NCBI GenBank assembly: GCA_965222155.1
Contig: CBDCTH010000011.1
Location: 1-19,961, forward strand
Source: Gammaproteobacteria bacterium
GTDB lineage: Bacteria > Pseudomonadota > Gammaproteobacteria > Eutrophobiales > Eutrophobiaceae
DNA length: 19,961 nt
Direction: 5' to 3'
The notes beneath the pieces are model-generated. The model was not told the origin of the DNA and did no database searches. It worked only from the letters and a program-made list of their open reading frames with translations. This document shows, in pieces, positions 1-19,961 of the stretch. Numbering within the stretch: the first letter of the stretch is position 1; every line of letters starts with the position of its first letter. Both the position numbers and the translations under genes were made by a program.

Positions 1-183
1 CGTGTGCGGGAATGGTACGGAGGGTGTCTACTGACTTTGAGATGCCCCTGTTGTCAGGAACATTGCTGTCCGTAGCTGTAACGCATACTGTGTTTTCCTG
101 GTGTTTTCCAACATAAAAAGGTTACAAGCAGTTTTTCCATTGTAGAATGTCGGTACTCAAATCAGACTGACAGAGGAAATGTA

Positions 184-840: not shown

Positions 841-863
841 AGAACCGCTGTATGGAGCAAGGC

Positions 864-3524
864 ATGACTGACGATAAACTAAAAACCATTACGGTAAATA
901 ACAAGGAATACCGGATTTATTCACTACAGGCGCCGGACGGGAGGCAAGACATCAGCCGCCTGCCCTATTCCCTGAAAATCCTGCTGGAGAACCTGTTACG
1001 CCACGAGGACGGGGTCAATATCACCCGCGCCGACATCACTGCCCTGGCCGATTGGGATGCGAAGGCAAAGCCGGAACAGGAGATCTCCTTTACCCCGGCC
1101 CGGGTATTGATGCAGGACTTTACCGGCGTCCCGGCTGTGGTTGATCTCGCCGCCATGCGCGACGCCATGCAATCACTGGGCGGCGACCCGGAAAAGATCA
1201 ATCCGCTGTCGCCGGCTGAACTCGTCATTGATCATTCAGTGATGGTGGACGTCTTCGGCACGGCGGATGCGGCGCAACGAAACGCGGTCATTGAATTCAA
1301 ACGCAACCGGGAACGCTATGAGTTCCTGCGCTGGGGACAACAGGCGTTCTCCAATTTCAAGGTGGTGCCGCCGGACACCGGCATTGTGCACCAGGTCAAC
1401 CTGGAATACCTGGCCAGGACGGTGTTCACCAGGGAGGTTGACGGCGTGGTCGAAGCCTATCCCGATACCGTGGTCGGCACCGATTCCCATACCACGATGA
1501 TCAACGGCCTGGGCGTACTCGGCTGGGGCGTGGGCGGTATTGAGGCGGAAGCGGCAATGCTGGGACAACCTATCACCATGCTGATCCCCGAAGTGGTCGG
1601 TTTCAAACTCAGCGGCGCGCTGCCTGAGGGCGCTACGGCCACGGACCTGGTCCTGACCGTGGTTGAAATGCTCAGGAAACACGGCGTGGTGGGCAAGTTC
1701 GTCGAATTTTACGGAGACGGCCTGGACAACCTGTCGCTGGCCGACCGGGCGACCATCGCCAACATGGCGCCGGAATACGGCGCGACCTGCGGCATCTTCC
1801 CCATTGACCGGGAAACCGTCAATTACCTGCGCCTGTCAGGCCGGGATAATGAGCAGGTTGAACTGGTCGAGGCTTACGCAAGGGCGCAGGGGATGTGGCG
1901 TGACACCGGGACGCCGGAAGCCGATTATTCCGCCACCCTGAGTCTTGATATCGGCACGGTAACGCCCAGCCTGGCAGGGCCGAAACGGCCCCAGGACCGG
2001 ATCCCTCTGGCGCATGCCAAAGACAGTTTCCGCGGGCACCTGGCGGACGCTACCAGGGGTCGGGACGGTGGCGGGGTTGCCCGGGTGGAAACGCCGCTGG
2101 GTGACCATTACGATTTGAAAGACGGTGCGGTAGTCATTGCGGCCATCACCTCTTGCACCAATACGTCAAACCCCTCGGTAATGGTCGGCGCCGGGCTGGT
2201 CGCAAAAAAAGCCGGCGCGCGTGGGCTGGCGGTCAAACCCTGGGTAAAGACCAGCCTGGCGCCGGGCTCCCTGGTAGTGCGCGACTACCTGAACCGGGCC
2301 GGGCTCACGGCTGATCTCGACAACCTGGGATTCAATATCGTCGGCTACGGTTGCACCACCTGTATCGGCAATTCCGGCCCCTTGCCCGAGGAGGTAAGTC
2401 GGGGGATTGCGCAAGGTGATCTGGTCGCTACTGCGGTATTATCCGGCAACCGCAACTTTGAAGGCCGGGTTCATGCAGAAGTCAAAATGAATTTCCTGGC
2501 CTCGCCGCCGCTGGTGGTCGCCTATGCAATAGCCGGAACGATGGATATCGACCTGCAGAATGACCCCCTGGGCCGCGACGCCGACGGCAACGCCGTCTAC
2601 CTGAAGGATATCTGGCCCAGCCAGGCCGAGATCAATGGCGTCATCGCCGCATCGGTCGATTCGGACATGTTCCGTAATTCATACCGGCAAGCCTTTACCG
2701 GTGATGCCAACTGGACCGGCATCAACGTCCCGGAGAGCAACCGCTATCAATGGAGCAACGACTCCACTTACGTACAGAACCCTCCTTATTTTGAGGGCAT
2801 GAGCGCCACGCCAGACGCGCTTGAACCGATACAGGGCGCAAGAATACTGGTAAAGCTGGGCGACAGCATCACCACCGATCACATCTCCCCTGCCGGCGCC
2901 ATCAAGGCCGACACGCCGGCGGGCAGGTACCTGATCGATAAAGGGGTAAAGCCGGTGGATTTCAACTCATACGGCTCCCGGCGCGGCAACCACGAGGTGA
3001 TGATGCGCGGCACCTTTGCCAATATCCGTTTGCGCAATCAACTGGCGCCGGGAACTGAAGGGGGATGGACCATACACCAGCCTTCCGCTGAACAGATGTC
3101 GATTTACGCGGCGGCGATGAGGTACAAGGAGGAAGACGTGCCCTTGATCGTCCTGGCAGGCAGTGAATACGGCACCGGTTCATCCCGGGACTGGGCGGCA
3201 AAAGGCGCCAGGCTGCTTGGCGTGCGCGCGGTGATTGCAGTCAGCTTTGAGCGCATACACCGTTCCAACCTGGTCGGCATGGGGGTGCTGCCCCTGGTGT
3301 TCAAGCCCGGTGAAAATACCGATAAACTCGGTTTGACGGGGCGGGAAACCTATTCCATCCACGGCCTGGAAAGCGGCGCCAGGGAAGTCGGGGTCAGCGC
3401 CAGCGCGGATGACGGGACCCAAACTGAATTCACTGCGATTGTCCGGGTGGACACACCAAAGGAATGGGACTACTACAACAACGGCGGCATCCTGCACTAT
3501 GTCCTGCGGGAATTAGCCGCCTGA
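864..3524 (+). CDS. acnA: Aconitate hydratase A (AcnA/IRP family)
   Basis: Motifs [72 protein letters not shown] (Fe-S cysteines), TTDHISPAG and [15 protein letters not shown] 864 has GGAG 6 nt upstream; the ORF track start at 852 is the alternative. Confidence 0.97.
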
Positions 3525-4697
3525 AGCAACAAGCTCCGTTTTTTGTCTTTGCGAAATATATGATGTGACAAGCAGCGCGAGCATCACGCAGTAGCACAGA
3601 CTGGTAAACCGCAGGACTGCAATCATGTCGAATTTTTCAACGATAAATGAACTGGCAGCAGGTGCGATGGCAGTTCCCAGCGCCGAGTTGAATATCAGGT
3701 AACTGATCATCCTCGGAGTGGGCGCCGCAACCAGCATGATGCCGAATGCGATGATCAGTTTCAACATCCCACCGGTAACAAGACCCAGGATAAATATGCT
3801 GACAGTCAAATGCGAGACTGAATCGACACTCCACAAGGTAACAGTCAACACGGTAGACAATACACCGGAAATAAATATGACCCTGGTCAGCGTGAACCTG
3901 AGTACAAGGAAGAACATTATCAGCTGGCCGATAAACATACCCAGGAACAACCGGCTGACCAGTTTGCCTGCCATATCCGGGTTCAGATTAAATTGTTCCT
4001 GGGTGTAATTGGGTATCCAGGAATAGATCGTGACAAAGCCTGCCAGGTAGATCAGGATAGCAGCGCCGATCAGGTAAATTTCAACAGGCCAGTAGTTGCC
4101 GGCGCCTGCATTAACGGGAGTGGAACCCTGTCTCGACGTAGCCGGGTAACTGGAGAACCAGGCAATGAGGGCTATGAGCAGCGCTACTGAAAAAGCAAGC
4201 AGGTAGGCGCTGCTCCAGTGCAATTGGTTCAGAATAAATTTACCGGCAAGAAAAGTGCTGATGACACCGGCCATACTGTAGAACGAATCGGTCAGCAGCA
4301 TCATTGACGCGCGCAGTCCGGAAGTATAGATATTTGTGATGACGACTATCGCAGCCGTCAAATTCACGCCGCAGGACAGGCCGACCACAAACAACCATAA
4401 CGGAAAAAAGAGATAGAGATCGACGATATAGATACTTGCCAGTGAAACACAGGTCAATCCCGAACAACACAGGATGATATTCTTTATCCGGGCCAGGTCG
4501 AAAATAACCAGCGAAATCAGGGTGCCGACCAGGATTCCAGCAGTCAGGTAGCTGAAACCGGCAGTTGCGGTGGTTATCGAGAGGTCGTAGTGTCGGGCAA
4601 TTGGGGCGGTGACGATGCCCAGCGGCGAAATAACCGCAGACATGACAAAATAAGCCATAAAGCTCGTCAATGTAATCCTGTATTTGTTTGCCGGCAT
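3513..4697 (-). CDS. tsgA: MFS transporter, TsgA-like
   Basis: 394 aa with about 12 hydrophobic segments. [11 protein letters not shown] and the N-terminus ([13 protein letters not shown]) resemble my recollection of E. coli TsgA (LLFTDSFFSMAG). Overlaps the acnA 3' end by 12 bp, convergently. Confidence 0.75.
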
Positions 4698-4754: not shown

Positions 4755-5423
4755 CTATTTCAGTATTCCATTCATTAAAATCTGTTTAATGTTTTTCCTG
4801 GTTTGATTATAAAATCTTGGGTCGTCAAGGTTTTTCCCCAGTACGGAATCAATTTGTATGGCAAAATCCGCATAATGTTGTGTCACGGCCCAGATCATCA
4901 TAATCAGGTGGTAGGGGTCGATATCAACCATCTCCCCCCGTTTCACCCATTTTCTTATCACCCGGGCCTTTTTCTTTACTATGTCACGTAAATAGGTATC
5001 CAGCACGGGCTTCAGGATGGGCGCACCGGCGGCAATCTCATTTGCGAATACACGCGATGACATTGGGTACACCCTGGAAAATTCTATTTTCTGGTCAATA
5101 TATGCGCCGATTTCGTGTTCCGGCGATTCCTTCTCGTCCAGTTCCTTCAAGGGTTGCAGCCATATTTCCAGGATGTTGCGCAACACGGTGAGATAGAGTT
5201 CTTCCTTGGATGAAAAATAATAGAGCAGGTTCGGTTTGGACATATCGGCCTTGTCTGCGATCTGGTCGATTGTCGCACCCCGGTAGCCGTACATGGAAAA
5301 GATTTCTGTCGCCGCATTCAGGATTTTTTCCCTGTTGCGGACCTGAATCCGGCTGTCTTTCTTCCTGTGCTCCTTCTGTTCCAGGTCCAGGGCGTCAAAC
5401 AGGGGAGGGTTTGAACTCAACAT
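4755..5423 (-). CDS. rutR: TetR-family pyrimidine-sensing regulator (RutR/PydR)
   Basis: HTH ATIDQIADKADMSKPNLLYYFSSKEELY. RutR-type C-terminal motifs LEIWLQPL, SRVFANEI and DPYHLIMMIWAVTQHYADF keep the Trp/Trp/Gln uracil-binding positions. Divergent from the pyrimidine catabolic operon. Confidence 0.9.
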   Translation of the reverse strand: MLSSNPPLFDALDLEQKEHRKKDSRIQVRNREKILNAATEIFSMYGYRGATIDQIADKADMSKPNLLYYFSSKEELYLTVLRNILEIWLQPLKELDEKESPEHEIGAYIDQKIEFSRVYPMSSRVFANEIAAGAPILKPVLDTYLRDIVKKKARVIRKWVKRGEMVDIDPYHLIMMIWAVTQHYADFAIQIDSVLGKNLDDPRFYNQTRKNIKQILMNGILK

Positions 5424-5468
5424 AATTTGCTCACTTGGCTTGATCTAGTTTTTAATTTGTCGGCATAT

Positions 5469-5484
5469 TTGACCAAAGGATAAA
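5469..5484. promoter_or_regulatory. Putative RutR operator
   Basis: TTGACCAAAGGATAAA matches the RutR consensus TTGACCAnnTGGTCAA at 11/14 positions and lies between rutR and the -35 of the catabolic operon. A perfect half-site TGGTCAA is at 5561-5567. Confidence 0.65.
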
Positions 5485-5491
5485 ATAAAAA

Positions 5492-5520
5492 TTGTCGAGA
5501 ATAAAGTTCGCCTTTATAAT
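5492..5520 (+). promoter_or_regulatory. Sigma70-type promoter of the beta-ureidopropionase-hydA-mmsA operon
   Basis: TTGTCG (5492-5497), 17-nt spacer, TATAAT (5515-5520), 74 nt before the GTG start at 5595. Confidence 0.7.
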
Positions 5521-5594
5521 CTATCTTTGGCTTATGCCTGAACGGTATTATATACAACACTGGTCAAAGTCATATCACAAGAAGGAAACAGCCC

Positions 5595-7944
<2,350 letters not shown>

Positions 7945-7959
7945 AGTAGAATACGACCC

Positions 7960-9495
7960 ATGAGATCAATACAAGCAGTAGAAAACCTGAATGCAAGCGA
8001 CCGGATAGTCGGTCATTACATCAATGGCCGGACAATAACAGACGGCAATGAACGTACCCTGGCAGTTTATAATCCCGCTACGGGCCAAGTCGCCCGCCGG
8101 GTAGCGCTGGCGGGTAAGGCAACGGTGGAAAAAGCCGTTGCAGCAGCAGCAGCGGCCTTTCCGGGATGGCGCAGCACACCTCCTGTGAAACGTGCCCGGC
8201 TCATGTTCCGTTTCAAGACCTTATTGGAACAGCATGAGAATGAGATTGTCAGCCTGTTGACCGAAGAACACGGTAAAGTCCTGGATGATGCATGCGGCGA
8301 GTTTACCCGGGGTGTGGAGGTGGTCGAATATGCCTGCGGCGCGCCCGAATTGTTGAAGGGAGAGCACAGTAAGGACGTCGGTCCCGATATCGACAGCTGG
8401 TCCGAATTTCAACCGCTGGGAGTGGTCGCCGGCATTACGCCATTTAATTTCCCGGCCATGGTGCCTTTATGGATGTACCCCATGGCCATCATCTGCGGCA
8501 ATACGTTTGTGTTGAAACCATCGGAAAAAGACCCGAGCGCACCGACCCGTATCGCTGAACTGCTCCAGGAAGCAGGATTGCCGGACGGTGTATTTAATGT
8601 AGTCAATGGCGACAAGGAAGCTGTTGATGCGTTATTGACCGATCCCCGGGTGCAGGCTGTCAGTTTTGTCGGTTCAACACCCGTGGCTGAATACATCTAT
8701 CGCACCGGGACGGCAAACGGAAAGAGAGTACAGGCACTGGGAGGGGCGAAGAATCACGCCGTTGTGATGCCGGATGCCGATACTGACAATGCAGTGAACG
8801 CGTTAATGGGCGCCGCTTATGGCTCCTGTGGCGAGCGCTGTATGGCCATTTCCGTAGTAGTCTGTGTCGGTGATGCGGTAGCCGACGAGATGGTAACCCA
8901 ACTGGCCGCGCGGGTAACAGGCCTGAAGATCGGTCCGGGTATCGACAGCCGTAATGAAATGGGTCCCCTGATCAGTAAACCGCACTTTGAAAAAGTACGC
9001 AGCTACGTTGATACAGGTATCGCGGAAGGCGCAGAACTGGTGGTGGACGGACGCGAGATTAATGTTCCTGAGCAGCCGGAAGGCTTCTTTATGGGCGGCT
9101 GCCTGTTTGACCGGGTCACACCGGACATGCGTATATACAAGGAGGAAATCTTTGGCCCCGTATTATGCATGCTGCGCGTCCAGAGCCTGCAGGAGGCAAT
9201 GCAACTCATCGATGAACATGAATACGGAAACGGCACCTGCATATTTACCCGTGACGGCGGCGCTGCCCGTTATTTCACTGACAATATACAGGTCGGCATG
9301 GTCGGCGTCAACGTGCCCTTGCCGGTACCGGTTGCCTGTCACAGTTTCGGCGGCTGGAAACGCTCCCTGTTCGGCGACCTGAGCATTTACGGTCCCGATG
9401 CCATACGTTTTTATACACGGCGTAAAACCATCAGCCAGCGCTGGCCTTCAGATTCCGTTGAGAAAGCGCAGTTTTCCTTTCCCAGCACTCAGTAA
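7960..9495 (+). CDS. mmsA: CoA-acylating (methyl)malonate-semialdehyde dehydrogenase
   Basis: GITPFNFPAMVPLWMYP, LKPSEKDP, SFVGSTPVAEYIY, QALGGAKNH, catalytic GERCMAIS, EEIFGPV and GMVGVNVPLPVP. Confidence 0.93.
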   Translation: MRSIQAVENLNASDRIVGHYINGRTITDGNERTLAVYNPATGQVARRVALAGKATVEKAVAAAAAAFPGWRSTPPVKRARLMFRFKTLLEQHENEIVSLLTEEHGKVLDDACGEFTRGVEVVEYACGAPELLKGEHSKDVGPDIDSWSEFQPLGVVAGITPFNFPAMVPLWMYPMAIICGNTFVLKPSEKDPSAPTRIAELLQEAGLPDGVFNVVNGDKEAVDALLTDPRVQAVSFVGSTPVAEYIYRTGTANGKRVQALGGAKNHAVVMPDADTDNAVNALMGAAYGSCGERCMAISVVVCVGDAVADEMVTQLAARVTGLKIGPGIDSRNEMGPLISKPHFEKVRSYVDTGIAEGAELVVDGREINVPEQPEGFFMGGCLFDRVTPDMRIYKEEIFGPVLCMLRVQSLQEAMQLIDEHEYGNGTCIFTRDGGAARYFTDNIQVGMVGVNVPLPVPVACHSFGGWKRSLFGDLSIYGPDAIRFYTRRKTISQRWPSDSVEKAQFSFPSTQ

Positions 9496-9524
9496 CAGCT
9501 TAACGGGGGGAAGTTCCGGCGAGG

Positions 9525-9550
9525 TGGATTCCGGGTCAAGACCGGAATGG
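9525..9550. repeat. REP-like palindromic element
   Basis: TGG-ATTCCGG-GTCAAGA-CCGGAAT-GG has a 7-bp stem. Its reverse complement shares the CCATTCC...GGAATCCA frame with the element at 13018-13043. Confidence 0.6.
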
Positions 9551-9661
9551 AATACTGGCGTCTATCGACTTTTAGATGGACCGCCCTGTCACTATTAATC
9601 CGCGCAAATTTTGTTTCGTTGGTTATACTGGCTGCCTTTGCAATATTGAGGGCTTGTCAGG

Positions 9662-10405
9662 TTGTCCGGTCATATCATCGAACTTGAACAAATAAGCAAA
9701 TCCTACGATGACAAACCGGTTATTCGGGATGTCTCCCTGGCGCTGCCGGTAAATACCACGACAGCGATTGTCGGGGAGAGCGGCAGCGGCAAGTCAACCC
9801 TCCTGCAACTGATCAACGGACTGGTTTTACCTGATTCCGGCAGCGTTCGGATACAGGGTGAGTTACTGGATTACAGCCGTTTACCCGGAATACGCCGCAC
9901 CATGGGTTACGCCGTACAGGGAGCAGGCTTGTTTCCCCATCTCACGGTAAGGGAAAACGTAACCCTGGTGGCCAGGCTTGATGGATGGCCGGCCGGCCGG
10001 ATCAGGGACCGATATGACAACCTGCTGGCACTGTTTGGCCTGGATGACGAATTATCCGGACGCTCCCCCCACAGTCTGTCCGGCGGGCAGGCACAACGGG
10101 TGGGATTATGCCGGGCCATGATGCTGGACCCGCCGTTACTGTTACTGGATGAGCCATTCTCAGGACTCGATCCCATTATCCGCGCGTCCATCTACCGGGA
10201 AATGCTGCAACTGGAACATATCGGCGACAGGTCCATCCTGCTGGTGACGCATGATATGAGTGAGGCAGCCAGACTCGCCGAGCGGCTGGTAATCCTGAAA
10301 CAGGGTCGGATAATCCAGCAAGGCAGCATGCAGGAGATTAAAACAAGCCCGGCTGACGACTATGTCAGGGAGTTATTCCTGAACGAGGCCTGGGATGATG
10401 GCTAA
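9662..10405 (+). CDS. ABC transporter ATP-binding subunit, osmoprotectant (OpuA/OpuCA/ProV-like), no CBS domains
   Basis: Walker A GESGSGKST, Q-loop GYAVQGAGLFPHLTV, signature LSGGQAQRVG, Walker B LLLLDEPFSGLDP, H-loop VTHD. TTG start with GAGGG upstream. Confidence 0.88.
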   Translation: MSGHIIELEQISKSYDDKPVIRDVSLALPVNTTTAIVGESGSGKSTLLQLINGLVLPDSGSVRIQGELLDYSRLPGIRRTMGYAVQGAGLFPHLTVRENVTLVARLDGWPAGRIRDRYDNLLALFGLDDELSGRSPHSLSGGQAQRVGLCRAMMLDPPLLLLDEPFSGLDPIIRASIYREMLQLEHIGDRSILLVTHDMSEAARLAERLVILKQGRIIQQGSMQEIKTSPADDYVRELFLNEAWDDG

Positions 10406-11885
10406 TCCACGGCGTATCCTCACGCTTCTACTCCTGTACCTGCTCTGTATGCCGGCGAGTCTCGCCCAAATCACTGTCGGGAGCAAAAACTTCAATGAAA
10501 GCTACCTGCTGGCCGAAATAATTGCACAGTCGCTGGAATTGGAAGGGTTCAGTGTTGACAGGAAGTTTGGCCTGGGCGGCACACTGGTCTGTTACGAGGC
10601 CCTGGCGAACGGCGCGATAGATGTTTACGTGGAGTATACAGGCACCCTGGCGGAAGTCATCCTGAAGACAGATATTCCGGCAACGGCCCTGGACCAACTG
10701 AATACCGCGGTCTCGGAACGGGGCCTGCAGGTACTCGATCCACTCGGGTTCAACAACACGTACGCCCTGGTGATGCGGGAAAAAACCGCCGAAGAGAAAG
10801 GGATTTCATGGATATCGGACCTCGCATCCCACCCGGAACTGGTTCTGGCCTTCTCCCTGGAATTCCTGAATCGGGAAGACGGCTGGCCCGGCCTGGACGC
10901 GACTTACGACCTGTCCGGAAAGCCCACAGGTATTGAACACGGTCTGGCCTACCAGGCCATCGTCGATGGGTCTGTTGATGTGATTGACGCCTACTCCACT
11001 GACGGGGAACTGTCCAGGTATGCCTTGACCGTGCTCGACGACGACCGAGGTTATTTCCCGCAATATTTTGCTGTCCCGTTTACGCGCCTGGACCTGCCGG
11101 ACAGAGCCAGGGAAGTCCTGCTTGGCCTGTCTGGAAGAATCGACGATGACCGTATGCAGGAACTGAACAGGATGACGACCATCGACGGTAAGAGCTTTGC
11201 AGAAGTTGCGAGTGAATTCATCCGGGATGAAGGACTGGGGGATACGGAAGTTGAATACGGGCTTGTCTCTTCGATCCTGGGCAATACCGTGACCCATCTC
11301 AAGCTGACGGCTATAGCCCTGGCCCTGGGCTGCCTGTTGGGTCTGCCGCTGGGCATTCTTGTTTTTCGCATCCGTTCCGTGGCGAGAGTCACCGTTTACC
11401 TTGCCGGGTTGCTGCAGACCATCCCTTCCATCGCATTACTGGCGCTGATGATCCCGCTGTTCGGGATTGGTGAACGACCGGCGATCATCGCGCTGTTTCT
11501 GTATTCCCTGTTGCCCATACTGCGAAACACCATTACCGCGCTGGTCACTATCGACCCGCTGTTGAAACGGGTGGCCGAAGCCATAGGCTTGACCAGGTGG
11601 GAACAACTGCGCCATGTATTACTACCGATGGCGCTACCGACTATCCTTGCGGGCGTCAGGACGGCAGCCATCATCAGCATCGGCACGGCGACCCTGGCTG
11701 CGTTCATCGGCGCAGGCGGGCTGGGTGAACCTATCGTAACCGGACTGGCGCTGAACGATACCAACCTGATCCTGCAGGGCGCCATCCCGGCGGCGGGCCT
11801 GGCCATCCTGGTGGAACTTTTCTTTGAGTTACTGGAAAGATTACTGGTGAAACCTCACATGCTGGCGGGGCAGTTGCCGAAATAG
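10395..11885 (+). CDS. Betaine-type ABC transporter, fused substrate-binding (N-terminal, OpuAC-like) and permease (C-terminal) protein
   Basis: Signal peptide, then ITVGSKNFNESYLLAE, YVEYTGT, GFNNTYAL, EFLNREDG, DAYSTDG and FPQY. C-terminal permease has QTIPSIALL, an EAA-loop region (VAEAIGLTRWEQL) and IGAGGLG. Overlaps the ATPase gene. Confidence 0.88.
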   Translation: MMANPRRILTLLLLYLLCMPASLAQITVGSKNFNESYLLAEIIAQSLELEGFSVDRKFGLGGTLVCYEALANGAIDVYVEYTGTLAEVILKTDIPATALDQLNTAVSERGLQVLDPLGFNNTYALVMREKTAEEKGISWISDLASHPELVLAFSLEFLNREDGWPGLDATYDLSGKPTGIEHGLAYQAIVDGSVDVIDAYSTDGELSRYALTVLDDDRGYFPQYFAVPFTRLDLPDRAREVLLGLSGRIDDDRMQELNRMTTIDGKSFAEVASEFIRDEGLGDTEVEYGLVSSILGNTVTHLKLTAIALALGCLLGLPLGILVFRIRSVARVTVYLAGLLQTIPSIALLALMIPLFGIGERPAIIALFLYSLLPILRNTITALVTIDPLLKRVAEAIGLTRWEQLRHVLLPMALPTILAGVRTAAIISIGTATLAAFIGAGGLGEPIVTGLALNDTNLILQGAIPAAGLAILVELFFELLERLLVKPHMLAGQLPK

Positions 11886-11904
11886 TTCTGGTGAGAAATC
11901 CGGG

Positions 11905-12915
11905 CTAGCGCTGACCGGCAAACCCGGGGATGACGGCTTCTGCGTATCTGGCAATGATCTCTTCTTCATTGCCGTTGTCCAGGTAGATGTTGAATTGTGT
12001 TATCCCTGCCTTTTCCAGTTCCCTCAATTTGGCAACATGGTCGGCAGGACTGCCTAATACACAGAAGCTCCTGACGATGTCAGGGGTAATGAAGTCCAGG
12101 AAAGGGTTATCACTCCGGCCATGTTTTTTATAATCATAGCCACGCCGTTTTTCAATATAAGCGGTCAGACTGCCCGGCACTTCCCCGGTATTTGCGCCAT
12201 ACTTCTCAACAATATCGGCAACGTGGTTGCCTACCATGGCGGGGAACCACCTAGTCGCTTCAACGCATTCATCCAGTGAGCCAAAATAAGCCGGCGCAGC
12301 AGACATGACCCTGAAGGCCGACATATCCCGTCCGGCAGCCTTGCCGGCTGTCCGGCACTGCTCTACAAACCAGGATATCAGTGCCGGTTCCGCTATCTGC
12401 AGGATTACCCCATCACCATGCCTGCCCGCTGTTGCCAAAGCTTTTGGACCATAAGCGGCTATCCATACCGGGAGATCATAGCTGGCAGCCCAGTCGAACT
12501 GGACGGGTTCCGGACATTCTTCATAAGTCACCTCCTCACCACGGGCCAGGGCTTTCACCTTTTGCGCAAATTCAGTCAGACGGCTCAGGCCGGCAGGTTT
12601 TTTACCCATTACCCGCATGGAACTGTCACCCCGACCCAGGCCTATATCAAACCGGCCGCCACTTTGCAGGGCCAGACTTGAAAACATGCTGGCCGCCACG
12701 GACCAGTCCCTGACGTTCGGATTGGTGACACAAGGACCGAAGCGCATGTTTTTCGTGTATTCCATACACATGGCGATAGCGGCATAACAATCGCGCCAGA
12801 GGATATGTGAGTCATAAAACCAGCAATAACTGAACCCGCCTGTTTCCGCCTGGCGCACCAGGTAACGCGCCCGGTCCGGGCTGACGGAACCCTTGAAGCA
12901 AATACCGAATTCCAC
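11905..12915 (-). CDS. LLM-class (luciferase-like/Mer-like) oxidoreductase, TIGR03842/CPS_4043-like
   Basis: WFYDSHILW, GPCVTNP..RD, GLGRGDS, VWIAAYGPKAL, RWFPAMVGNHVADIV and GYDY..HGRSDNP..DF match my recollection of the CPS_4043-type family. GTG start with SD AAGGAGG 8 nt upstream. Confidence 0.82.
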   Translation of the reverse strand: MEFGICFKGSVSPDRARYLVRQAETGGFSYCWFYDSHILWRDCYAAIAMCMEYTKNMRFGPCVTNPNVRDWSVAASMFSSLALQSGGRFDIGLGRGDSSMRVMGKKPAGLSRLTEFAQKVKALARGEEVTYEECPEPVQFDWAASYDLPVWIAAYGPKALATAGRHGDGVILQIAEPALISWFVEQCRTAGKAAGRDMSAFRVMSAAPAYFGSLDECVEATRWFPAMVGNHVADIVEKYGANTGEVPGSLTAYIEKRRGYDYKKHGRSDNPFLDFITPDIVRSFCVLGSPADHVAKLRELEKAGITQFNIYLDNGNEEEIIARYAEAVIPGFAGQR

Positions 12916-12994
12916 TTACATTCCCTCCTTTAAACTGAAAACCACGTTATAACTAAAGCCAGTATCGTTAAGGCCGTTTGAGTAACATTAACAA

Positions 12995-13084
12995 TGTCAC
13001 TTCTCAACCCCTCGACAGCCATTCCTGCGAAAGCAGGAATCCAGCGTAAGTAACAAAACAGTGATACTGTCACTTCTCAACCCC
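12995..13084. repeat. 17-bp direct repeats flanking a REP-like hairpin
   Basis: TGTCACTTCTCAACCCC occurs at 12995-13011 and 13068-13084. Between them is the perfect hairpin ATTCCTGC-GAAA-GCAGGAAT (13021-13040). Confidence 0.75.
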
Positions 13085-13102
13085 CCTGAAAATCCATGTG
13101 AC

Positions 13103-14598
13103 TCAATGTCTGCCAATGGATTGAACCCTCATCAACAAATAATAGATAAACCCGGCCAGCAATGCCCCCACAAACCAGGCATAGTGATACAAGCTGGTAA
13201 AAAAAGACGGTAAATCGCCTGTCACACCGATAGCATTTAAAAACCCGGGGGCAGTGGGCGCAATGCCCAGGCACAAGGCTATCACCGCATTCATATTCCA
13301 GCCCTTTTTATAGCTGTATGCTCCCTGCTCCCGATAAAGCTCAGCGGTTTCCAGGCGGCATTTCCTCACAAAGAAATAATCCGTGATCATGATGCCGGCA
13401 ATGGGTCCCAGCAGGGATGAATAACCGATAAGCCAGATAAACAGGTATGCGCCGGCAGATTCCAGCAGTTTCCACGGCATGATTGCAATGCCTATCCCGG
13501 CGGTGATATATCCCCCCAACCTGAATGAAATCCTCCCCGGCGCCAGGTTGGAAAAACCGTTGGCAGGCGCAACGACGTTTGCGGCCAGGTTTGTGGTTAA
13601 CGTGGCAATCGTCAGTGCAATCAGTCCCAGGATGACCCCGGCTCCGTCAAGCCGTCCCGCCAGGACAACCGGGTCCCAGATCGCTTCTCCAAAAATGATT
13701 ACGGTCGCCGAGGTAACAAACACACTGACAAGAGCCAGTATCGCCATAGGGACAGGCAAACCTATTCCCTGGCCGAGCAACTGGTCGCGCTGGTTGCGCG
13801 CATAACGGGTGAAATCCGAAATATTGAGTGACATGGTTGCCCAGAAGCCCACCATCGCCGTCAAGCCGGGCCAGAATACCTGCCAGAATTCTCCCTCCCG
13901 TACCCCACCGGACACGAACGCCGAAGGTCTTGACAACATGTCGCCAAAACCTCCGGCGCGTACATACGCCCAGGCCAGTAGAGCAAACGCGGCCAGTAAC
14001 AAAAAAGGCGCTGCCAGGGTCTCCAGCCAGCGGATGGCCTCCGTCCCTTTCTCTATAAAGACAAGTTGTAATGCCCAGAATGCCAGGAAACACAGTAACT
14101 GGGCAAAGTCGATATCAATAAACGGGATAGCCGATCCGGTGAAAGCATCCGCGCTCATTGCATTGAGTATCTGGTAGATGGCAAAGCCCCCTACCCAGGT
14201 CTGGATGCCGAACCAGCCGCAGGCGACCAGGCCGCGCAGCATGGCCGGCAGTCTGGCCCCAATCGTACCGAAGGAAGCGCGTAACAAAACGGGAAACGGC
14301 ACACCATATTTTGTACCGGCATGACCGTTCAACATCATCGGGATCATGATGATGAGATTGCCCAGAAATATCGTCAATACCGCCTGCCACCAGGCCATGC
14401 CCTGCTGCATCAGGCCGGAAGCCAGTAGATAAGCCGGAACGGAAACAACCATGCCGAACCAAAGCGCCGAGATATTGTCCAGCTCCAGGTCCTCTGTTTC
14501 TCCCCCGCCGGGGCGAGGTCCTCGTTCCATAGGGAATTCTCCGGATTCACCCGGATATCCGGCTTCTGATGAGGCATTTGAACAGCAGTTGCATTCAT
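13103..14598 (-). pseudogene. NCS1-family nucleobase:cation symporter with a 1-nt frameshift near 14478 (pseudogene or sequence error)
   Basis: The conserved N-terminus SLWNEDLAPAGEKQRTWSW is in ORF 14410..14598. The continuation NISALWFGMVVSVP, GTKYGVPFPVLLRASFG, CGWFGIQTW, SLNISDFTRYA, NLAANVVAP and PWKL is in ORF 13103..14530. Adding one base gives about 498 aa. Confidence 0.8.
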
Positions 14599-14605
14599 GA
14601 GGATT

Positions 14606-15841
14606 TCAGGGCTGACGCTTCACCGGCAGGCCCACCAACCCGCGACTCTGGACGCCGGTTTTCCATTCAAGCCGGTCTGCGCTCACAGCCGGTTCCAATC
14701 CGGGAAGACGCCGTAATATTGTGTTAAACATGATCTCCATATTCTGGCGCGCCAGGTGATTACCCAGGCAATGGTGAACACCGCCACCAAACGCCAGGTG
14801 ACGATTCGGGTCGCGCCGAATATCAAATGCATCCGGCTCATCAAAACAGGCGCTGTCCCGATTGGCTGAAGCGTACAGAAAGCCCAGCTTTGCGCCTTTT
14901 TCAAACACGTATCCCCGGTATTTCATATCTTCCAGCGCATACCGGTGAAAATAGGGCAAGGGCGGTTCATAGCGAAACATTTCCTGTACCGCGGTATGAA
15001 TCAGCCCGGGGTCTGCCTTCAGCGCGGCCATCTGCTCCGGGTGTTGAAACAAGGCCAGCATACCGTTTCCCAGCGCATCAATCGTTGAACCGTGTCCCGC
15101 CATGAGAATAGTCATGGCGGTCGAAACCAGTTCATCATGATTCAGGCAATCGCTGCCATCCCGCCATGCGATCATTTCTGAAATCAGGTCAGAGCCCGGC
15201 TGTTCCCGACGCATTGCCGTCATTTCAGTCATGTAAGCCACAAACTCCGTCGTAGCCCGCTCCGCCAGTTCCCTGTGCGCTTCGGTCCGTTCAGGTTCAA
15301 AAAACTGGACGATATCTTCCGACCATGTGCGTAACCGGGAACGGTCCGGTTCCGGTACGCCCAGCATTTCCCCTATGACAAATCCCGGTACGGGGGCAAC
15401 CAGGTCTTCCATGAAATCGAACTCTTTTTCCGCTTCAATGGTGTCGATTTTACGGTTGACTAAAGCCTGGATAAAGCTCTGCATCTGATTGATCCGCGCA
15501 GGAGTGAAAAGCCTGAATACCGCCTTCCTTAACCGGCTGTGCAGTTCCCCTTCACTGTCAATAATCGACACCTTCACATAACGGCTGTGGGCCGGCGCCG
15601 CCTCCCAGTTCTGTCTTTCACGATATGCGGCAATCTCCTCGCAGGTCATGACATGATCCATGGTCCTGCCCAGACGTTCATCCATAACCAGTGTTTTAAT
15701 ATCATCATACCGGGAGAACAGCCAGACTTTCCAGTCCTCGTGATAACGGACGGGACATTCCTCTCGCATACGCGCATAGACGGAATAAGGGTCCCGGGCA
15801 AATTCTGTTGAATAGGGTTCAAAACTGAAAAGATGGTTCAT
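14606..15841 (-). CDS. Cytochrome P450
   Basis: Heme motif HLAFGGGVHHCLG, K-helix EMFR (ExxR), SANRD, FDEPDAFDIRR and N-terminal FARDPYSVYARMRE. Start is uncertain: ATG 15841 has AGGA upstream; ATG 15850 and GTG 15883 are in frame. Confidence 0.93.
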   Translation of the reverse strand: MNHLFSFEPYSTEFARDPYSVYARMREECPVRYHEDWKVWLFSRYDDIKTLVMDERLGRTMDHVMTCEEIAAYRERQNWEAAPAHSRYVKVSIIDSEGELHSRLRKAVFRLFTPARINQMQSFIQALVNRKIDTIEAEKEFDFMEDLVAPVPGFVIGEMLGVPEPDRSRLRTWSEDIVQFFEPERTEAHRELAERATTEFVAYMTEMTAMRREQPGSDLISEMIAWRDGSDCLNHDELVSTAMTILMAGHGSTIDALGNGMLALFQHPEQMAALKADPGLIHTAVQEMFRYEPPLPYFHRYALEDMKYRGYVFEKGAKLGFLYASANRDSACFDEPDAFDIRRDPNRHLAFGGGVHHCLGNHLARQNMEIMFNTILRRLPGLEPAVSADRLEWKTGVQSRGLVGLPVKRQP

Positions 15842-15996
15842 TATCGGCATCCTGTATTCAGGTATTACCTTTGACAGCTTCACAATGCTTTATAACGGGC
15901 ATGATTAACGCTACGTTACTGAATAAGCGGCCCCATTTTCAGTTCGTGTTCCAATTGCCTTATATGGCGAATGAACAGGTATTGTAAGACATCCTG

Positions 15997-16026
15997 AACA
16001 GAAAGGGGCGCGCAGCGCGCCCCTTT
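15997..16026 (-). terminator. Probable intrinsic terminator downstream of the TonB-dependent receptor
   Basis: Perfect 11-bp stem AAAGGGGCGCG-(3 nt)-CGCGCCCCTTT at 16002-16026. On the minus strand it ends in TTTCTGTT. It starts about 25 nt after the TBDR stop. Confidence 0.7.
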
Positions 16027-16051
16027 ACCCGGTTATTGATCGGCACAGGGT

Positions 16052-18250
16052 TTAATCGGCGCCGAATGTCTTGGAAAAACGCACTCCGAATTCACTCCGG
16101 TCATTACTGCGGATGGTAATGGAAAAAGGATTGCCGAAAGTGCCGGATGCATTATCGTAGACTTCGTTCAGGACGTTCTCTCCGTAGATTGCAACGTGCC
16201 AACTGGGGTTGTCGGGTTGATAACGGATATTAAAATCCAGCAGTTCGCGGCTCTCGACCAGGTTCAAAGGATTGTTGTTCGCTTCACCGTACATCTCACC
16301 CCGGTAATTGTAATTAAGGCGAAATGCGAGAGAACCGCCGCTGTTCATGGGTACCACGAACTCTGGTGATATCGAAAACGTCCAGTCCGGCGTCAATTGC
16401 GGAACACCGCCTTCAACGGTCCCTATTACGGCCGGGTCAACTTCGGTAAATTCCGAATCCATGTAACCGACGGCGGTCTGCACACTGAAATTCTCATCCA
16501 CCTGTAATTTGCCTTCAAACTCCACTCCCCAAGTGCGCGATTCACCGGCATTTTCAGTGATGGTCAGAAATCCGAAATCCGGATCGAAACGATTGGTCTG
16601 CAACTGCAGGTCGGTATAATCCGTCCAGAATATGGTCGTCGCCAGGCGCAAACGGTCGAACAGGACACCTTTTATTCCTCCTTCATAGTTCAGGGCAAAT
16701 TGCGGGTCAAAGGAGACGAACGTCGCATCGCCACCGAACGGCCGGGCCGGGAACCCGCCGCTTTGATATCCGCGGGAGATCGCTACGTAAAAATTCAAAT
16801 CATCATTGATGGAATAAGTGGCAGACGCATCCCAGGTCACTTCCGTCCAGTCTTCCGAGCGCGGCACCGGGATGGCCGGCTGGAACAGCGCCGCCACCCC
16901 GGCGGCATCCTTACTGTCATCGCTGACGCGCACACCACCGCCTATCACAAGGGTATCAGTCAGTGAATAATCCACCGAACCAAACAGGGCCCAGCTCTCA
17001 ACATCCTGGGAGACATTGATCTCGCCGTCGGTGACAAACGGAGGGAAGATTTCGAATGGCCGGGATACCGTCTCACCGTCTTCGGTATAATAATAGGCGC
17101 CAGTGACAAAATTCCAGGAAGCAAAATCACCACTGAATTGTATTTCAGCAGAGTACTGGTCAGCCTCACCCCGTTCCGGAAAGACAATTGCGCCAAGGCT
17201 GTCCTGCTGATCCGTACCGCCTGTGTATTCGCTGAAACGATAACTGCCGATAAACTTTGCGGAATAGACATTCGTAATACTCCAGTCCGCGCTGGCAGAA
17301 ACACCATAGGCCTGACTGGTCTGTTTCGCGATGTTGTCTGCCGGCGAGGCATTATCATCGGGGTCGGGGGCAAACAGGCTGCCGGGCAAACCATTGGGAA
17401 ATTGCCCCGGGGGCGCATTAAAATAGGTTGGGGACTGGCCGTGGGCGCTATCGGAGAAATCCGCGGTCAGCAATAGGGAAAAATCATCAGAAGGGGTGAA
17501 ATTGAACATGGCGCGCAGCGCGGCTTCACGAATCTGGCCCAGTTCAACTTCCGTATTCGGCTGATTGATAAATTCTCCTACGCCATTGCGCCGGTTATAC
17601 AATCCGGTAATTGAGGCGGACAGGTTGTCCGATAACGCGGTAGTACCGTAAAAATCGAATTTCCCGCGCGCTCGGGTACCCCCTTGTACGGTCAGTGTTG
17701 CCTCATCCTCTCCCCCGGGCTTCTTTGTTATCACGTTGATTGCGCCGCCTATCGAATTGCGCCCGTATAACGTACCCTGGGGGCCGCGCGCCACTTCAAC
17801 CCGCTCGATATTGGACAGGCTCAGGTTTGAACCGACCTGGCGACCCAGGTAAACGCCATCAAGATACAGGCCCACCGCCGAATCAACCGTAATGATATGG
17901 TCCTGAGTGCCGACGCCGCGCATGAACACGCTGGTATGATTCTGGTTGCCGTTGCCGAAATTTCCGATAAACAGGTTGGGCACGTTCTTACCCACGTCAT
18001 ACAGGTCGCCCATATTCAGGTTGGCGAAATCCTCCTCGGTAAAAGCAGTCAATGCAACAGGTATATCCTCGAGGCTCTCTTCCCGTTTTCTTGCCGTCAC
18101 GACAATTTCCTCAAAAACACTTGCGCCACTGCCTGCATCCTGGGCAAAGGCAATGTTTGTGTTCACCAGAAAAAACGATGCACATAAAAACAGACTGGTT
18201 ATACGAAGGCACCATTCAGTGCCGACAGTAAAGATGTTGACTTTAGCCAT
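16052..18250 (-). CDS. TonB-dependent outer-membrane receptor
   Basis: Signal peptide ending AFA/QD, TonB-box region EEIVVTARKREESLEDIPVALTAF, plug motif IERVEVARGPQGTLYGRNSIGGAINVIT, and C-terminal YGENVLNEVY...FGVRFSKTF. ATG 18250 has GGGGG 8 nt upstream; GTG 18256 is the alternative. Confidence 0.93.
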   Translation of the reverse strand: MAKVNIFTVGTEWCLRITSLFLCASFFLVNTNIAFAQDAGSGASVFEEIVVTARKREESLEDIPVALTAFTEEDFANLNMGDLYDVGKNVPNLFIGNFGNGNQNHTSVFMRGVGTQDHIITVDSAVGLYLDGVYLGRQVGSNLSLSNIERVEVARGPQGTLYGRNSIGGAINVITKKPGGEDEATLTVQGGTRARGKFDFYGTTALSDNLSASITGLYNRRNGVGEFINQPNTEVELGQIREAALRAMFNFTPSDDFSLLLTADFSDSAHGQSPTYFNAPPGQFPNGLPGSLFAPDPDDNASPADNIAKQTSQAYGVSASADWSITNVYSAKFIGSYRFSEYTGGTDQQDSLGAIVFPERGEADQYSAEIQFSGDFASWNFVTGAYYYTEDGETVSRPFEIFPPFVTDGEINVSQDVESWALFGSVDYSLTDTLVIGGGVRVSDDSKDAAGVAALFQPAIPVPRSEDWTEVTWDASATYSINDDLNFYVAISRGYQSGGFPARPFGGDATFVSFDPQFALNYEGGIKGVLFDRLRLATTIFWTDYTDLQLQTNRFDPDFGFLTITENAGESRTWGVEFEGKLQVDENFSVQTAVGYMDSEFTEVDPAVIGTVEGGVPQLTPDWTFSISPEFVVPMNSGGSLAFRLNYNYRGEMYGEANNNPLNLVESRELLDFNIRYQPDNPSWHVAIYGENVLNEVYDNASGTFGNPFSITIRSNDRSEFGVRFSKTFGAD

Positions 18251-18350
18251 TTCCACTACCCCCTATACGCTACGTATTTGAAGCCGGATTCTGTACAAGA
18301 TCGCCGGTAGCCGCCGTATTATCCCGGTACGGAGTACGGGCAGCAGGGTA

Positions 18351-18379
18351 ATGATTCCATTTTCTGACCATAGAGTCAA
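18351..18379 (-). promoter_or_regulatory. Candidate TBDR promoter with overlapping RutR-like operator (18364-18379)
   Basis: Minus strand TTGACT, 17-nt spacer ending TGG, AATCAT (extended -10 like). TTGACTCTATGGTCAG matches TTGACCAnnTGGTCAA at 11/14 positions and covers the -35. Confidence 0.6.
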
Positions 18380-18398
18380 AAAAATATTTATCATTTAA

Positions 18399-19712
18399 TC
18401 AAAATATTTTTTTGATGACCGGTTTTGTCAGAGGTTTTTCTTCGCTAAGCACAAACGCCTGTTGTAATAAATGACGCGCCAGGTCGGCATCGCTGTCATC
18501 CCGTACATGCAGGTAGGCTATTGGAGTATGTGGGTCAATACGGGCGCCAATTCCCGCGATATCCGTCAACCCGACACTGTGATCAATGCTGTCTTCAACC
18601 CGCTTTCTGCCCCCGCCCAGTGCCACGATCACATTTCCGGCCTGGCGTACGTCAATATCGGCGAGGTAACCCTCTCCATCGAGAAAGACAGGTTTGATAA
18701 CCGGGCTGGGCGGCAGATAACGATCGATTCGTTCAATAAGATCAGGAGGACCTCCCATGGCCGTGGTCATTTCCATAAAGACCCGGGTCGCCTGCCCTTG
18801 ATCCAATGCGGATTGTAATAATTTCCCCGCTGCATGGCGGTCTTCCCCGATACCGGCCAATGCCAGCATATCGGTCGCCAGGGTGAGAACGACTTCGTGC
18901 AGGCGAGGGTCACGATAAGCGCCTGTCAGATAATTGATGGTCTCGCGTACTTCAAGGGCATTACCGGCGTTGCGTCCCAGGACTTCCGACATATCGGTGA
19001 TTACGGCCCTGACGGGCAGGCCGATTTCAGCCGCAGTATTGATAATGGTATCAGCCAGCGCATCAGCGGCTGTTTCAGTTTCCATAAAAGCGCCGCTACC
19101 TGTTTTGATATCCATGACCAGGCCGTCCAGGCCGGCTGAAACTTTTTTGGATAATATCGACGCGGTAATCAGTGGAACGGACTCGACGGTTGCCGTGACG
19201 TCACGTATTGAATAGAAACGCCGGTCTGCAGGGGCGAGTTCAGCCGTCTGGCCGATGATCGCACAGCCCACCGACCTGACCGTTCGTTTGAAGACATCAA
19301 GGCCCGGGGCGGTATCATAGCCGGGGATACTGTCCAGCTTGTCGAGGGTGCCGCCGGTATGCCCCAGACCACGTCCGGAAATCATGGGTATATAAGCGCC
19401 GCACGCGGCCACTAGAGGCGCCAGAATTAAACTGACCTTATCGCCCACGCCACCCGTTGAATGTTTATCGACGACCAGCCCGTCGATACCTTCAGCGGCC
19501 CAGTCAAGCACACTACCTGAATTTACCATAGCCCTGGTCAGTTCAGCGGTTTCGGCAAAATTCATGGATTGAAAACAGATGGCCATGGCCAGGGCTGATA
19601 TTTGCTCGGATGCAATTGAGCCGTCTGCCAGACCGTTGACGAAGAAGCTTATCTCAGCAGGCGTAAGCGCCTCTCCGATTCTTTTTTTCCTGATAATTTC
19701 CTGGGGGAGCAT
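18399..19712 (-). CDS. deoA: Thymidine phosphorylase
   Basis: MLPQEIIRKKR N-terminus, VDKHSTGGVGDKVSL, PMISGRGLGHTGGTLDKLDSIPGY, APADRRFYSIRDVTATVES, ITASILSKK and LGGGR. ATG 19712 matches the usual DeoA N-terminus; the ORF track start is 19763. Confidence 0.95.
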   Translation of the reverse strand: MLPQEIIRKKRIGEALTPAEISFFVNGLADGSIASEQISALAMAICFQSMNFAETAELTRAMVNSGSVLDWAAEGIDGLVVDKHSTGGVGDKVSLILAPLVAACGAYIPMISGRGLGHTGGTLDKLDSIPGYDTAPGLDVFKRTVRSVGCAIIGQTAELAPADRRFYSIRDVTATVESVPLITASILSKKVSAGLDGLVMDIKTGSGAFMETETAADALADTIINTAAEIGLPVRAVITDMSEVLGRNAGNALEVRETINYLTGAYRDPRLHEVVLTLATDMLALAGIGEDRHAAGKLLQSALDQGQATRVFMEMTTAMGGPPDLIERIDRYLPPSPVIKPVFLDGEGYLADIDVRQAGNVIVALGGGRKRVEDSIDHSVGLTDIAGIGARIDPHTPIAYLHVRDDSDADLARHLLQQAFVLSEEKPLTKPVIKKIF

Positions 19713-19827
19713 GCGAGCGAGTGTATCTTCGTATATTAACTTATTTTCTGATCTCCGTGGCATACCGGCCCAGCCACGCTTACGTTATACTATCACCAGA
19801 TGCTGAACCGGCAAACGGGCAAACACC

Positions 19828-19961
19828 ATGGCAACAATCAAACCAGATGATCTGATAACAAGCGTTGTGGATTCCCTGCAGTTTATATCCTACTACCATC
19901 CGCAGGATTTTATCGCAGCGGTACACAACGCCTACCAGCGGGAAGAATCCCCGGCGGCCAA
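19828..19961 (+). CDS. Class I (Fe-S) fumarate hydratase, 5' part, truncated by the window edge
   Basis: Hand translation from ATG 19828 gives MATIKPDDLITSVVDSLQFISYYHPQDFIAAVHNAYQREESPAA. This matches the N-terminus I recall for proteobacterial class I fumarases (DDLIQSVADALQFISYYHP.DFI...AY.REESPAA). Absent from the ORF track. Confidence 0.88.
   Translation, partial: MATIKPDDLITSVVDSLQFISYYHPQDFIAAVHNAYQREESPAA

Follow-up and report, generated by a model that had tools for sequence, protein, structure and literature searches.

In this study, we analysed a window of 19,961 nucleotides, which is the entire contig CBDCTH010000011.1 (C11) of a gammaproteobacterial assembly (GCA_965222155.1; 4.55 Mb in 12 contigs) assigned to the Eutrophobiaceae. 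We propose, with a probability of about 0.6, that it carries an accessory island for the scavenging and catabolism of uracil and thymine, in which a luciferase-like monooxygenase (LLM)-class oxidoreductase of family TIGR03842 replaces the missing dihydropyrimidine dehydrogenase, and that a cytochrome P450 and an ABC importer encoded among the island genes stand outside the pathway. The island occupies a conserved chromosomal slot between aconitase and fumarase-like genes in an uncultured gammaproteobacterial genus. An earlier reading of the same DNA (referred to below as the original prediction) had described a RutR-type pyrimidine locus in which capture at the outer membrane, base release by the thymidine phosphorylase DeoA, import by an NCS1 permease, tailoring by the P450, ring reduction by the LLM enzyme and ring opening follow one another. 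Its core, a RutR-type pyrimidine locus, is borne out, with the canonical reductase absent. All genes it named were found again in our inventory, which was drawn up from open reading frames and family scans of the window; two OpuA-like ABC importer genes (9662-11885) had been overlooked.

The case for the LLM enzyme begins with what the genome lacks. Step 2, a candidate for step 3 and the final step of the reductive pyrimidine pathway are encoded in the window. The dihydropyrimidine dehydrogenase PreA (NF006183), however, is above its cut-off in none of the 23 genomes of the genus, and the match of about 155 bits that 22 of them give is the biosynthetic dihydroorotate dehydrogenase PyrD (NF005574, 365 bits). 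Nor was RutA found above its cut-off in the genome, where the best match to TIGR03612 reaches 161 bits against a required 498. The LLM protein has as its nearest solved chains the F420-dependent methylene-tetrahydromethanopterin reductases (Mer), to which it aligns over its full length at an E-value of about 1e-28, and it scores 128 bits on the Mer model, for which the cut-off is 276. Genes for F420 biosynthesis are present in the genome, with FbiC at 1150 bits (cut-off 1018), CofD at 288 (257) and CofE at 274 (181), and CofD is above its cut-off in all 23 genomes of the genus. Also encoded outside the window are the NADPH-dependent F420 reductase Fno (204 bits against 150) and, on contig C12, a transaminase of the AptA type (690 bits against a cut-off of 500). 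Within the genus, the LLM gene and the dihydropyrimidinase gene are each found in 12 of the 23 genomes, and 11 genomes have both.

The neighbourhood of the LLM gene was compared in 80 loci from other genomes with LLM identities of 70-85%, 73 of which lie outside the genus. By tblastn within 10 kb, RutR-like and NCS1 genes were each found in 42 of the 80 loci, dihydropyrimidinase in 29, MmsA in 21 and the CN-hydrolase in 12. Clustering of open reading frames in the 73 non-genus loci gave a pyrimidine-type neighbour in at least 53, an F420 biosynthesis gene in at least 56 and both in at least 43, with neither of the two in 7; Fno was found in at least 40 of these loci, an M20 carbamoylase in at least 34 and AptA in at least 13. 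These counts are floor values, since of the 80 LLM genes themselves the crude open reading frame caller picked up only 64. A common gene order is cofG-cofH-cofD-cofC-cofE-fno-LLM, and in most of the proteobacterial loci examined the LLM protein is the only enzyme encoded directly after the F420 biosynthesis and F420-reductase genes. RutR-like, NCS1, carbamoylase and dihydropyrimidinase genes thereby recur alongside the LLM gene, and F420 is its presumed cofactor on genomic grounds. In an even sample of the class, only 1 of 339 other genomes has the LLM gene, and five named carriers were compared instead of a class-wide profile. All five (Paracoccus denitrificans, Marinomonas aquiplantarum, a Vibrio, Halomonas icarae and Mesorhizobium quangtriensis) have a dihydropyrimidinase above the cut-off, and none has a PreA match at E<=1e-30.

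The ring-opening genes and the permease also allow another substrate to be considered. The nearest solved chains of the CN-hydrolase are animal beta-ureidopropionases (2vhh, 1.7e-57; 6ftq, 3.3e-55), followed by N-carbamoylputrescine amidase (6.6e-52) and D-carbamoylase (about 1e-27), and none of the NCBIfam models exceeds its cut-off on this protein. The NCS1 protein, whose gene adjoins the LLM gene in 9 of 11 loci of the genus, has the hydantoin permease Mhp1 as its nearest solved chain (8e-37) and lies slightly under the TIGR00800 cut-off (Table 1). Together with the match of the CN-hydrolase to D-carbamoylases, and with a dihydropyrimidinase family that by its model name is also the D-hydantoinase family, this could be read as a locus for the use of hydantoins or N-carbamoyl amino acids, made up of D-hydantoinase, carbamoylase and hydantoin permease. 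We consider this very improbable, as the CN-hydrolase is far closer to the beta-ureidopropionases than to the D-carbamoylases, the regulator resembles RutR along its whole length, thymidine phosphorylase and MmsA are encoded within the locus, and beta-amino-acid transaminases of the AptA type recur in related loci. The mmsA gene is also found in some backbones of the genus that have no island. DeoA has a hydrophilic N terminus and no signal peptide, and would therefore act in the cytoplasm on imported nucleosides; this is at odds with the order of events in the original prediction, in which base release by DeoA preceded import by the NCS1 permease.

Residues 22-220 of the regulator align with E. 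coli RutR (3loc) from end to end at an E-value of 1.2e-57, but the protein is below both NCBIfam equivalog cut-offs (TIGR03613, 254.8 against 368 bits; NF011584, 220.5 against 230), and the full-length alignment supports membership in the RutR family in the wider sense only. RutR has uracil and thymine as its ligands and recognizes operators of the type TTGACCAnnTGGTCAA. The box search was made with TTGACCANNTGGTCAA, the E. coli RutR consensus. At up to 3 mismatches this sequence has 5 matches in the window against 0.89 expected, a number reached in none of 200 shuffles; three of the five fall within coding sequence and the other two are intergenic. The first intergenic match, box 1, keeps its position beside rutR in all 8 loci of the genus that hold rutR, and promoter-like sites at 5457-5486 and 5492-5520 contain or adjoin it. 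The second, box 2, lies between deoA and the TonB-dependent receptor gene, where it overlaps the -35 hexamer of a promoter-like site for the latter (18379-18351, beginning TTGACT), and it is conserved in 5 of the 7 loci with a receptor of the type described below as type A, L023 and L024 being the two that lack it. Upstream of the deoA, P450, NCS1 and LLM genes of the window no box was found at up to 3 mismatches. Of the boxes that had been predicted at both promoters, the one in the spacer between rutR and the CN-hydrolase gene stands, while the other precedes the receptor gene and not deoA. From the conserved boxes we infer that a RutR-like repressor controls at least the rutR/ring-opening and receptor promoters.

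The receptor gene is followed by a strong hairpin with a T-run, which was read by eye and was not listed by the automatic scan; because of this downstream hairpin and T-run, the gene looks like its own transcription unit with a RutR-type operator. A 9-mer, ACGTAGCGT, is present on the minus strand at 15908-15916 and 18267-18275, inside short inverted repeats just before the start codons of the P450 and receptor genes. It was dropped as a candidate shared element, as it has 17 copies in the genome, occurs in 1 of 11 loci of the genus and, at 2 mismatches, has a window count reached by 38 of 200 shuffles. It is probably there by chance, since it is not conserved in relatives.

The receptor itself has a signal peptide ending in AFA, followed by a stretch EEIVVTA that is likely to be the TonB box. 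Two types are found in the genus, type A with 66-85% and type B with 36% identity to the receptor of the window, and when presence was scored at E<=1e-110 with eight candidates per genome, each of the 12 genomes with the LLM gene had one or the other, and the 11 without it had neither. Woeseiaceae, Halioglobus, Azotimanducaceae, UBA6724 and a sister genus have homologues with 40-46% identity in their LLM/pyrimidine loci, and in the sister genus the NCS1, LLM and receptor genes are consecutive. In a tree obtained by a quick search with SH-aLRT support only, types A and B cluster with the homologues from such loci in Halioglobus, Woeseiaceae, Azotimanducaceae and UBA6724, while eight paralogues from the same genome fall outside this clade. 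The receptor, which the original prediction had counted as part of the system, belongs to the island, given its co-occurrence with the LLM gene, and the conserved box 2 makes it probably a member of the RutR-type regulon. With the terms tried, no TonB-dependent receptor for pyrimidines or nucleosides was found in the literature searched. A TonB-dependent receptor paralogue of 43% identity lies, in the genus, in a conserved group of four genes (L174-L178 and L181), the other three of which encode a flavin amine oxidase, a CN-hydrolase and a PhyH dioxygenase. The group is found in members with and without the pyrimidine island, G014 and G020 being carriers of the island, and it may serve on its own to scavenge some small nitrogen compound.

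Several of our observations weigh against the proposed pathway. One genome of the genus has dihydropyrimidinase without the LLM gene (G001) and one has the LLM gene without dihydropyrimidinase (G017), both assemblies being fragmented. Moreover, the genomes of the genus are kin and the island is a single linked block, so that the co-occurrence counts overstate independence. Both boxes are 3 mismatches away from a consensus that comes from E. coli. Pyrimidine genes are absent within 9 kb of the two receptor homologues that were found in the class sample without the LLM gene as anchor (G262 and G047), and the neighbours of the 43% identical paralogue are those of the four-gene group described above, among them a CN-hydrolase other than that of the island. 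No member of TIGR03842 with an enzyme assay, a mutant or an expression datum was found in the literature searched, and 20 of the 73 non-genus LLM loci have no pyrimidine-type neighbour within 10 kb by clustering of open reading frames. The 10-kb counts understate linkage, however, because the examined loci of Marinomonas and Vibrio end at the dihydropyrimidinase gene or slightly short of it.

The last two of these points, and the fact that the nearest solved relatives of the LLM protein use a pterin and not a pyrimidine, would also fit with uracil being reduced by an unrecognised enzyme encoded elsewhere, while the TIGR03842 enzyme carries out some other F420-linked job, such as a side reaction on an intermediate or the conversion of an unrelated but co-regulated substrate. 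We regard this as possible but doubtful. The family is more than 70% identical among alpha-, beta- and gammaproteobacteria, which suggests one conserved function; its gene is next to pyrimidine genes and immediately follows fno and the genes of F420 biosynthesis; its carriers have dihydropyrimidinase and no PreA; and the reduction is the sole gap in the encoded pathway. We infer that the LLM protein is an F420H2-dependent uracil/thymine reductase acting in place of the missing dihydropyrimidine dehydrogenase. As the best candidate for the ring-reduction enzyme, it is the best-supported part of the original prediction.

A precedent for such a reaction comes from the biosynthesis of mureidomycins, where, according to the available part of the report, the predicted F420/FMN oxidoreductase SSGG-03002/NpsU is needed to reduce the uracil C5-C6 bond (PMC10714638). 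The same part of that report also holds a point on the other side, as in-vitro assays with SSGG-03002 yielded no product (PMC10714638). A putative F420-dependent reductase of the 'luciferase family' has been proposed for uric-acid clusters of Chloroflexota, as the accessible portion of that study describes (PMC12507026). Uracil goes unmentioned in the portion of a 2021 review on F420 available to us, which lists the purpose of F420 in Proteobacteria as open (PMC8498797). No report of an F420-linked pyrimidine-catabolic reductase was found in the literature searched, subscription journals and supplements being outside this search.

For the P450, the evidence leads away from the pathway. The original prediction had assigned it a step of its own, the oxidative tailoring of thymine or modified pyrimidines ahead of the LLM reaction; methyl hydroxylation or demethylation would be examples of such a step. 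The gene is intact, and its product has the motifs FGGGVHHCLG, EMFR and AGHGST, which correspond to the signatures of P450 enzymes, namely the Cys-ligand loop FxxGxxxCxG, ExxR and AGxxT of the I-helix. The NCS1 gene follows it on the same strand after 75 bases, in six loci of the genus 21-99 bases separate it from a preceding rutR or rutR-tsgA, and in one island-less genome it abuts deoA. However, 20 of the 23 genomes of the genus have orthologues with 69-81% identity, and among the 10 genomes with neither LLM nor dihydropyrimidinase there are 8 that do. All five island-less loci examined share the gene order aconitase-ABC ATPase-ABC permease-P450. MmsA is encoded in three of these five loci, a fumarase-like gene closes four (not L184), and in one of them deoA lies between the fumarase-like gene and the P450 gene. 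Since the P450 and the ABC importer are present in island-less loci, they are backbone genes of the slot that receives the island. The position of the P450 gene within the island varies, as it follows rutR or rutR-tsgA in most of the island-bearing relatives and precedes the NCS1 gene in the window. The ABC binding protein-permease, for its part, is encoded in just 2 of the 80 LLM loci, both from the same genus.

Beyond the genus, P450 homologues are rare (8 of 399 other genomes of the class at E<=1e-60, with a best identity of 45%), and none of the 73 non-genus LLM loci has the P450. Among 48 loci with P450 homologues of 25-53% identity, none contained dihydropyrimidinase, LLM, NCS1, deoA or rutR and one contained a CN-hydrolase; no neighbour recurs in more than 9 of the 48, and as most are housekeeping genes, a function is not inferable from them. 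The window scans also gave no ferredoxin or reductase partner. A cluster of five loci (L122 type) has an AraC-like regulator beside the P450 homologue, and in L122 an NCS2 nucleobase permease is encoded on its other side. In G002, which has no ring-opening genes, deoA abuts the P450 gene with no gap and on the same strand (L182, 8086-10643), which suggests that the two are co-transcribed there. In view of this abutment and of the NCS2 permease gene in L122, a distant link of the P450 to nucleobases is conceivable. Overall we consider a tailoring step by the P450 unlikely; the pyrimidine linkage that the original prediction expected for its homologues is absent from all 48 loci, and the role proposed for the enzyme has to be given up. 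The case corrects an attractive but wrong inference, in that the P450 is a neighbour through chromosomal position and not through function.

According to the pathway that we favour, the TonB-dependent receptor would carry a pyrimidine compound over the outer membrane and the NCS1 permease would bring in free bases, while cytoplasmic DeoA would free thymine or uracil from imported deoxynucleosides. F420 would be reduced by NADPH through Fno, encoded elsewhere in the genome, and the TIGR03842 enzyme is presumed to saturate the C5-C6 bond of uracil or thymine with F420H2 as hydride donor. The ring would then be opened by dihydropyrimidinase, and the nitrilase-type beta-ureidopropionase would yield ammonia, CO2 and either beta-alanine or beta-aminoisobutyrate, whose carbon an AptA-like transaminase, also encoded elsewhere, and MmsA would channel to acetyl- or propionyl-CoA. 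The RutR-like repressor would govern the rutR/ring-opening and receptor promoters.

The features of the window are collected in Table 1. The ABC genes sit between mmsA and the LLM gene, so that the plus-strand block terminates with them. The NCS1-LLM spacer contains a 28-nt direct repeat, whose two copies are 73 bases apart and enclose a hairpin; the 20-nt core of the hairpin has 13 copies in the genome and resembles a repetitive extragenic palindromic (REP) element. Repeats and hairpin together widen the spacer to 187 bases, compared with about 60 in relatives, and contigs of three sequencing runs break or rejoin at 12984-13084. A scan of the window with Rfam gave no family at its gathering score.

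Table 1. Genes and sequence elements of the 19,961-nt window (scores in bits; cut-offs are those of the models named).
Feature	Positions	Strand or place	Evidence or sequence
Peptidyl-prolyl isomerase	184-840	plus	
Aconitase	852-3524	plus	
TsgA-like major facilitator superfamily (MFS) transporter	3513-4697	minus	
RutR-like TetR-family regulator (island)	4755-5423	minus	PF08362 171.9 bits; PF00440
RutR-like box 1	5469-5484	divergent rutR/CN-hydrolase promoter region	TTGACCAAAGGATAAA, 3 mismatches to consensus
Nitrilase-superfamily CN-hydrolase, candidate beta-ureidopropionase (island)	5595-6467	plus	PF00795 210.9 bits
Dihydropyrimidinase (island)	6484-7944	plus	TIGR02033 602.3 bits, cut-off 393
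MmsA, CoA-acylating (methyl)malonate-semialdehyde dehydrogenase	7960-9495	plus	TIGR01722 683.3 bits, cut-off 448.5
ProV-like ABC transporter ATPase (backbone)	9662-10405	plus	PF00005; TIGR01186 214 bits, below cut-off
Fused OpuAC-type binding protein-permease (backbone)	10395-11885	plus	PF04069 192.5 bits; PF00528 80.7 bits
LLM-class F420-type oxidoreductase (island)	11905-12915	minus	TIGR03842 489.2 bits, cut-off 295.45
28-nt direct repeat pair around REP-like hairpin	12984-13084	NCS1-LLM spacer	
NCS1 nucleobase:cation symporter (island)	13103-14530	minus	PF02133 380.4 bits; TIGR00800 349.3 bits, cut-off 353
Cytochrome P450, intact (backbone gene relocated into island)	14606-15883	minus	PF00067 99 bits
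Terminator-like hairpin 3' of receptor gene	15997-16023	minus	GGGGCGCG-CTG-CGCGCCCC then TTTCTGTT
TonB-dependent receptor, type A (island)	16052-18256	minus	PF07715 plug; PF00593 barrel
RutR-like box 2, before receptor gene	18364-18379	between deoA and receptor gene	minus strand reads TTGACTCTATGGTCAG
Thymidine phosphorylase DeoA	18399-19763	minus	TIGR02643 598.9 bits, cut-off 570.7

The assembly contains the site in a second version, on contig C12 (L026, 893000-912000), to which the window is similar at its two ends, with 99.1% identity over positions 1-3528 and 100% over 19779-19961. The C12 site contains aconitase, an MmsA whose protein is 85% identical, the ABC genes, a 44-residue fragment of the LLM protein and a P450 without its first 93 residues; the rutR, ring-opening, NCS1, receptor and deoA genes are all absent from it. 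We rejected the explanation that the C12 copy is a simple decayed locus, as a comparison with island-less species identifies it as the backbone state carrying deletion scars. One study provides two runs whose contigs are identical to the window and span all gene junctions other than 9754-11852, and the NCS1-P450 junction is also bridged by a run from another study. In run X1 the word depth of the island version is about 107-122, and that of a joint from 15856 to 19778 is 69; the latter is weak evidence because its shorter side has only 30 letters. Taken together with an assembly contamination of 7.28%, the read contigs and their depths indicate two co-existing strains; they suggest one with and one without the island, the island-bearing one being the more abundant by contig depth. 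Two Fno (npdG) matches with identical scores (L168 on C8, 7290-7919; L169 on C10, 92777-93406) are a further sign of redundant contigs or of a strain mixture.

In sister species (L015, 5107-7931; L016, 5504-9348; L038, 347-1201), the slot between the receptor and NCS1 genes, which is occupied by the P450 gene in the window, holds three other genes. These encode a 283-residue UNG-like protein that has kept the GQDPYP and PHPA motifs, a GMC oxidoreductase resembling choline dehydrogenase (665 bits on NF002550, where 605 are required) and a NIPSNAP protein, and the slot often adds a second RutR paralogue with a palindromic box of its own, TTGACAT..TTTGTCAA. The UNG-like and NIPSNAP genes are absent from the genome studied here. 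The genes in the slot of the sister species may form a module for a modified pyrimidine.

Were reduction of uracil or thymine by the LLM enzyme to be confirmed, it would answer why Proteobacteria make F420, a question posed in the part of the 2021 review accessible to us (PMC8498797), and it would mean that dihydropyrimidine dehydrogenases exist in a third form, unrelated to the NAD(P)H- and the ferredoxin-linked ones. A RutR-controlled TonB receptor would mean that dilute pyrimidines are captured actively at the outer membrane. We put forward only tentatively, and consider it rather improbable as a whole, the joint proposal that reduction of uracil or thymine by the LLM enzyme is the first physiological job of F420 in Proteobacteria, that the receptor is the first RutR-switched TonB importer for a pyrimidine base or nucleoside, and that the slot of the sister species extends the system to modified pyrimidines such as 5-hydroxymethyluracil.

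The known system to which the island is most readily compared is the Pyd pathway, which consists of PydA or PreT/PreA, dihydropyrimidinase, beta-ureidopropionase, a transaminase and MmsA. The island groups dihydropyrimidinase, a candidate beta-ureidopropionase and MmsA, and a matching transaminase is encoded elsewhere in the genome. However, a reductase of the PydA/PreA type was found in none of the 23 genomes of the genus, and the locus has an unrelated TIM-barrel LLM protein of the F420 class; in addition, the candidate beta-ureidopropionase is here of the nitrilase (animal) type, whereas most other LLM loci carry one of the M20 type. With the RutR/Rut system of E. coli, the locus shares a regulator that aligns with RutR from end to end and operator-like boxes at two promoters. 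It differs from this system in that the genome is without RutA, the regulator is below the cut-offs and its presumed targets are genes of the reductive route.

The LLM protein can be compared with three enzymes. It belongs to the same fold family as Mer, aligning with it over its full length, and the TIGR03842 model is classed as F420-dependent; Mer, however, functions in the one-carbon metabolism of methanogens, whereas the LLM family is found in Proteobacteria and beside pyrimidine genes. For SSGG-03002/NpsU the available part of the report gives genetic evidence that a predicted F420/FMN enzyme saturates the C5-C6 bond of uracil (PMC10714638), although this occurs in the biosynthetic tailoring of a uridyl peptide and not in the catabolism of a free base. 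The third enzyme is the LLM protein of the Chloroflexota uric-acid clusters, for which the accessible portion of the study makes the bioinformatic proposal that an F420-type enzyme encoded beside a cyclic amidohydrolase stands in for a ring reductase linked to NAD(P)H or ferredoxin (PMC12507026); there the enzyme is putative and its substrate derived from purines, pyrimidines not being addressed in that portion (PMC12507026), whereas in the island described here the LLM enzyme would take over the same kind of step for uracil and thymine.

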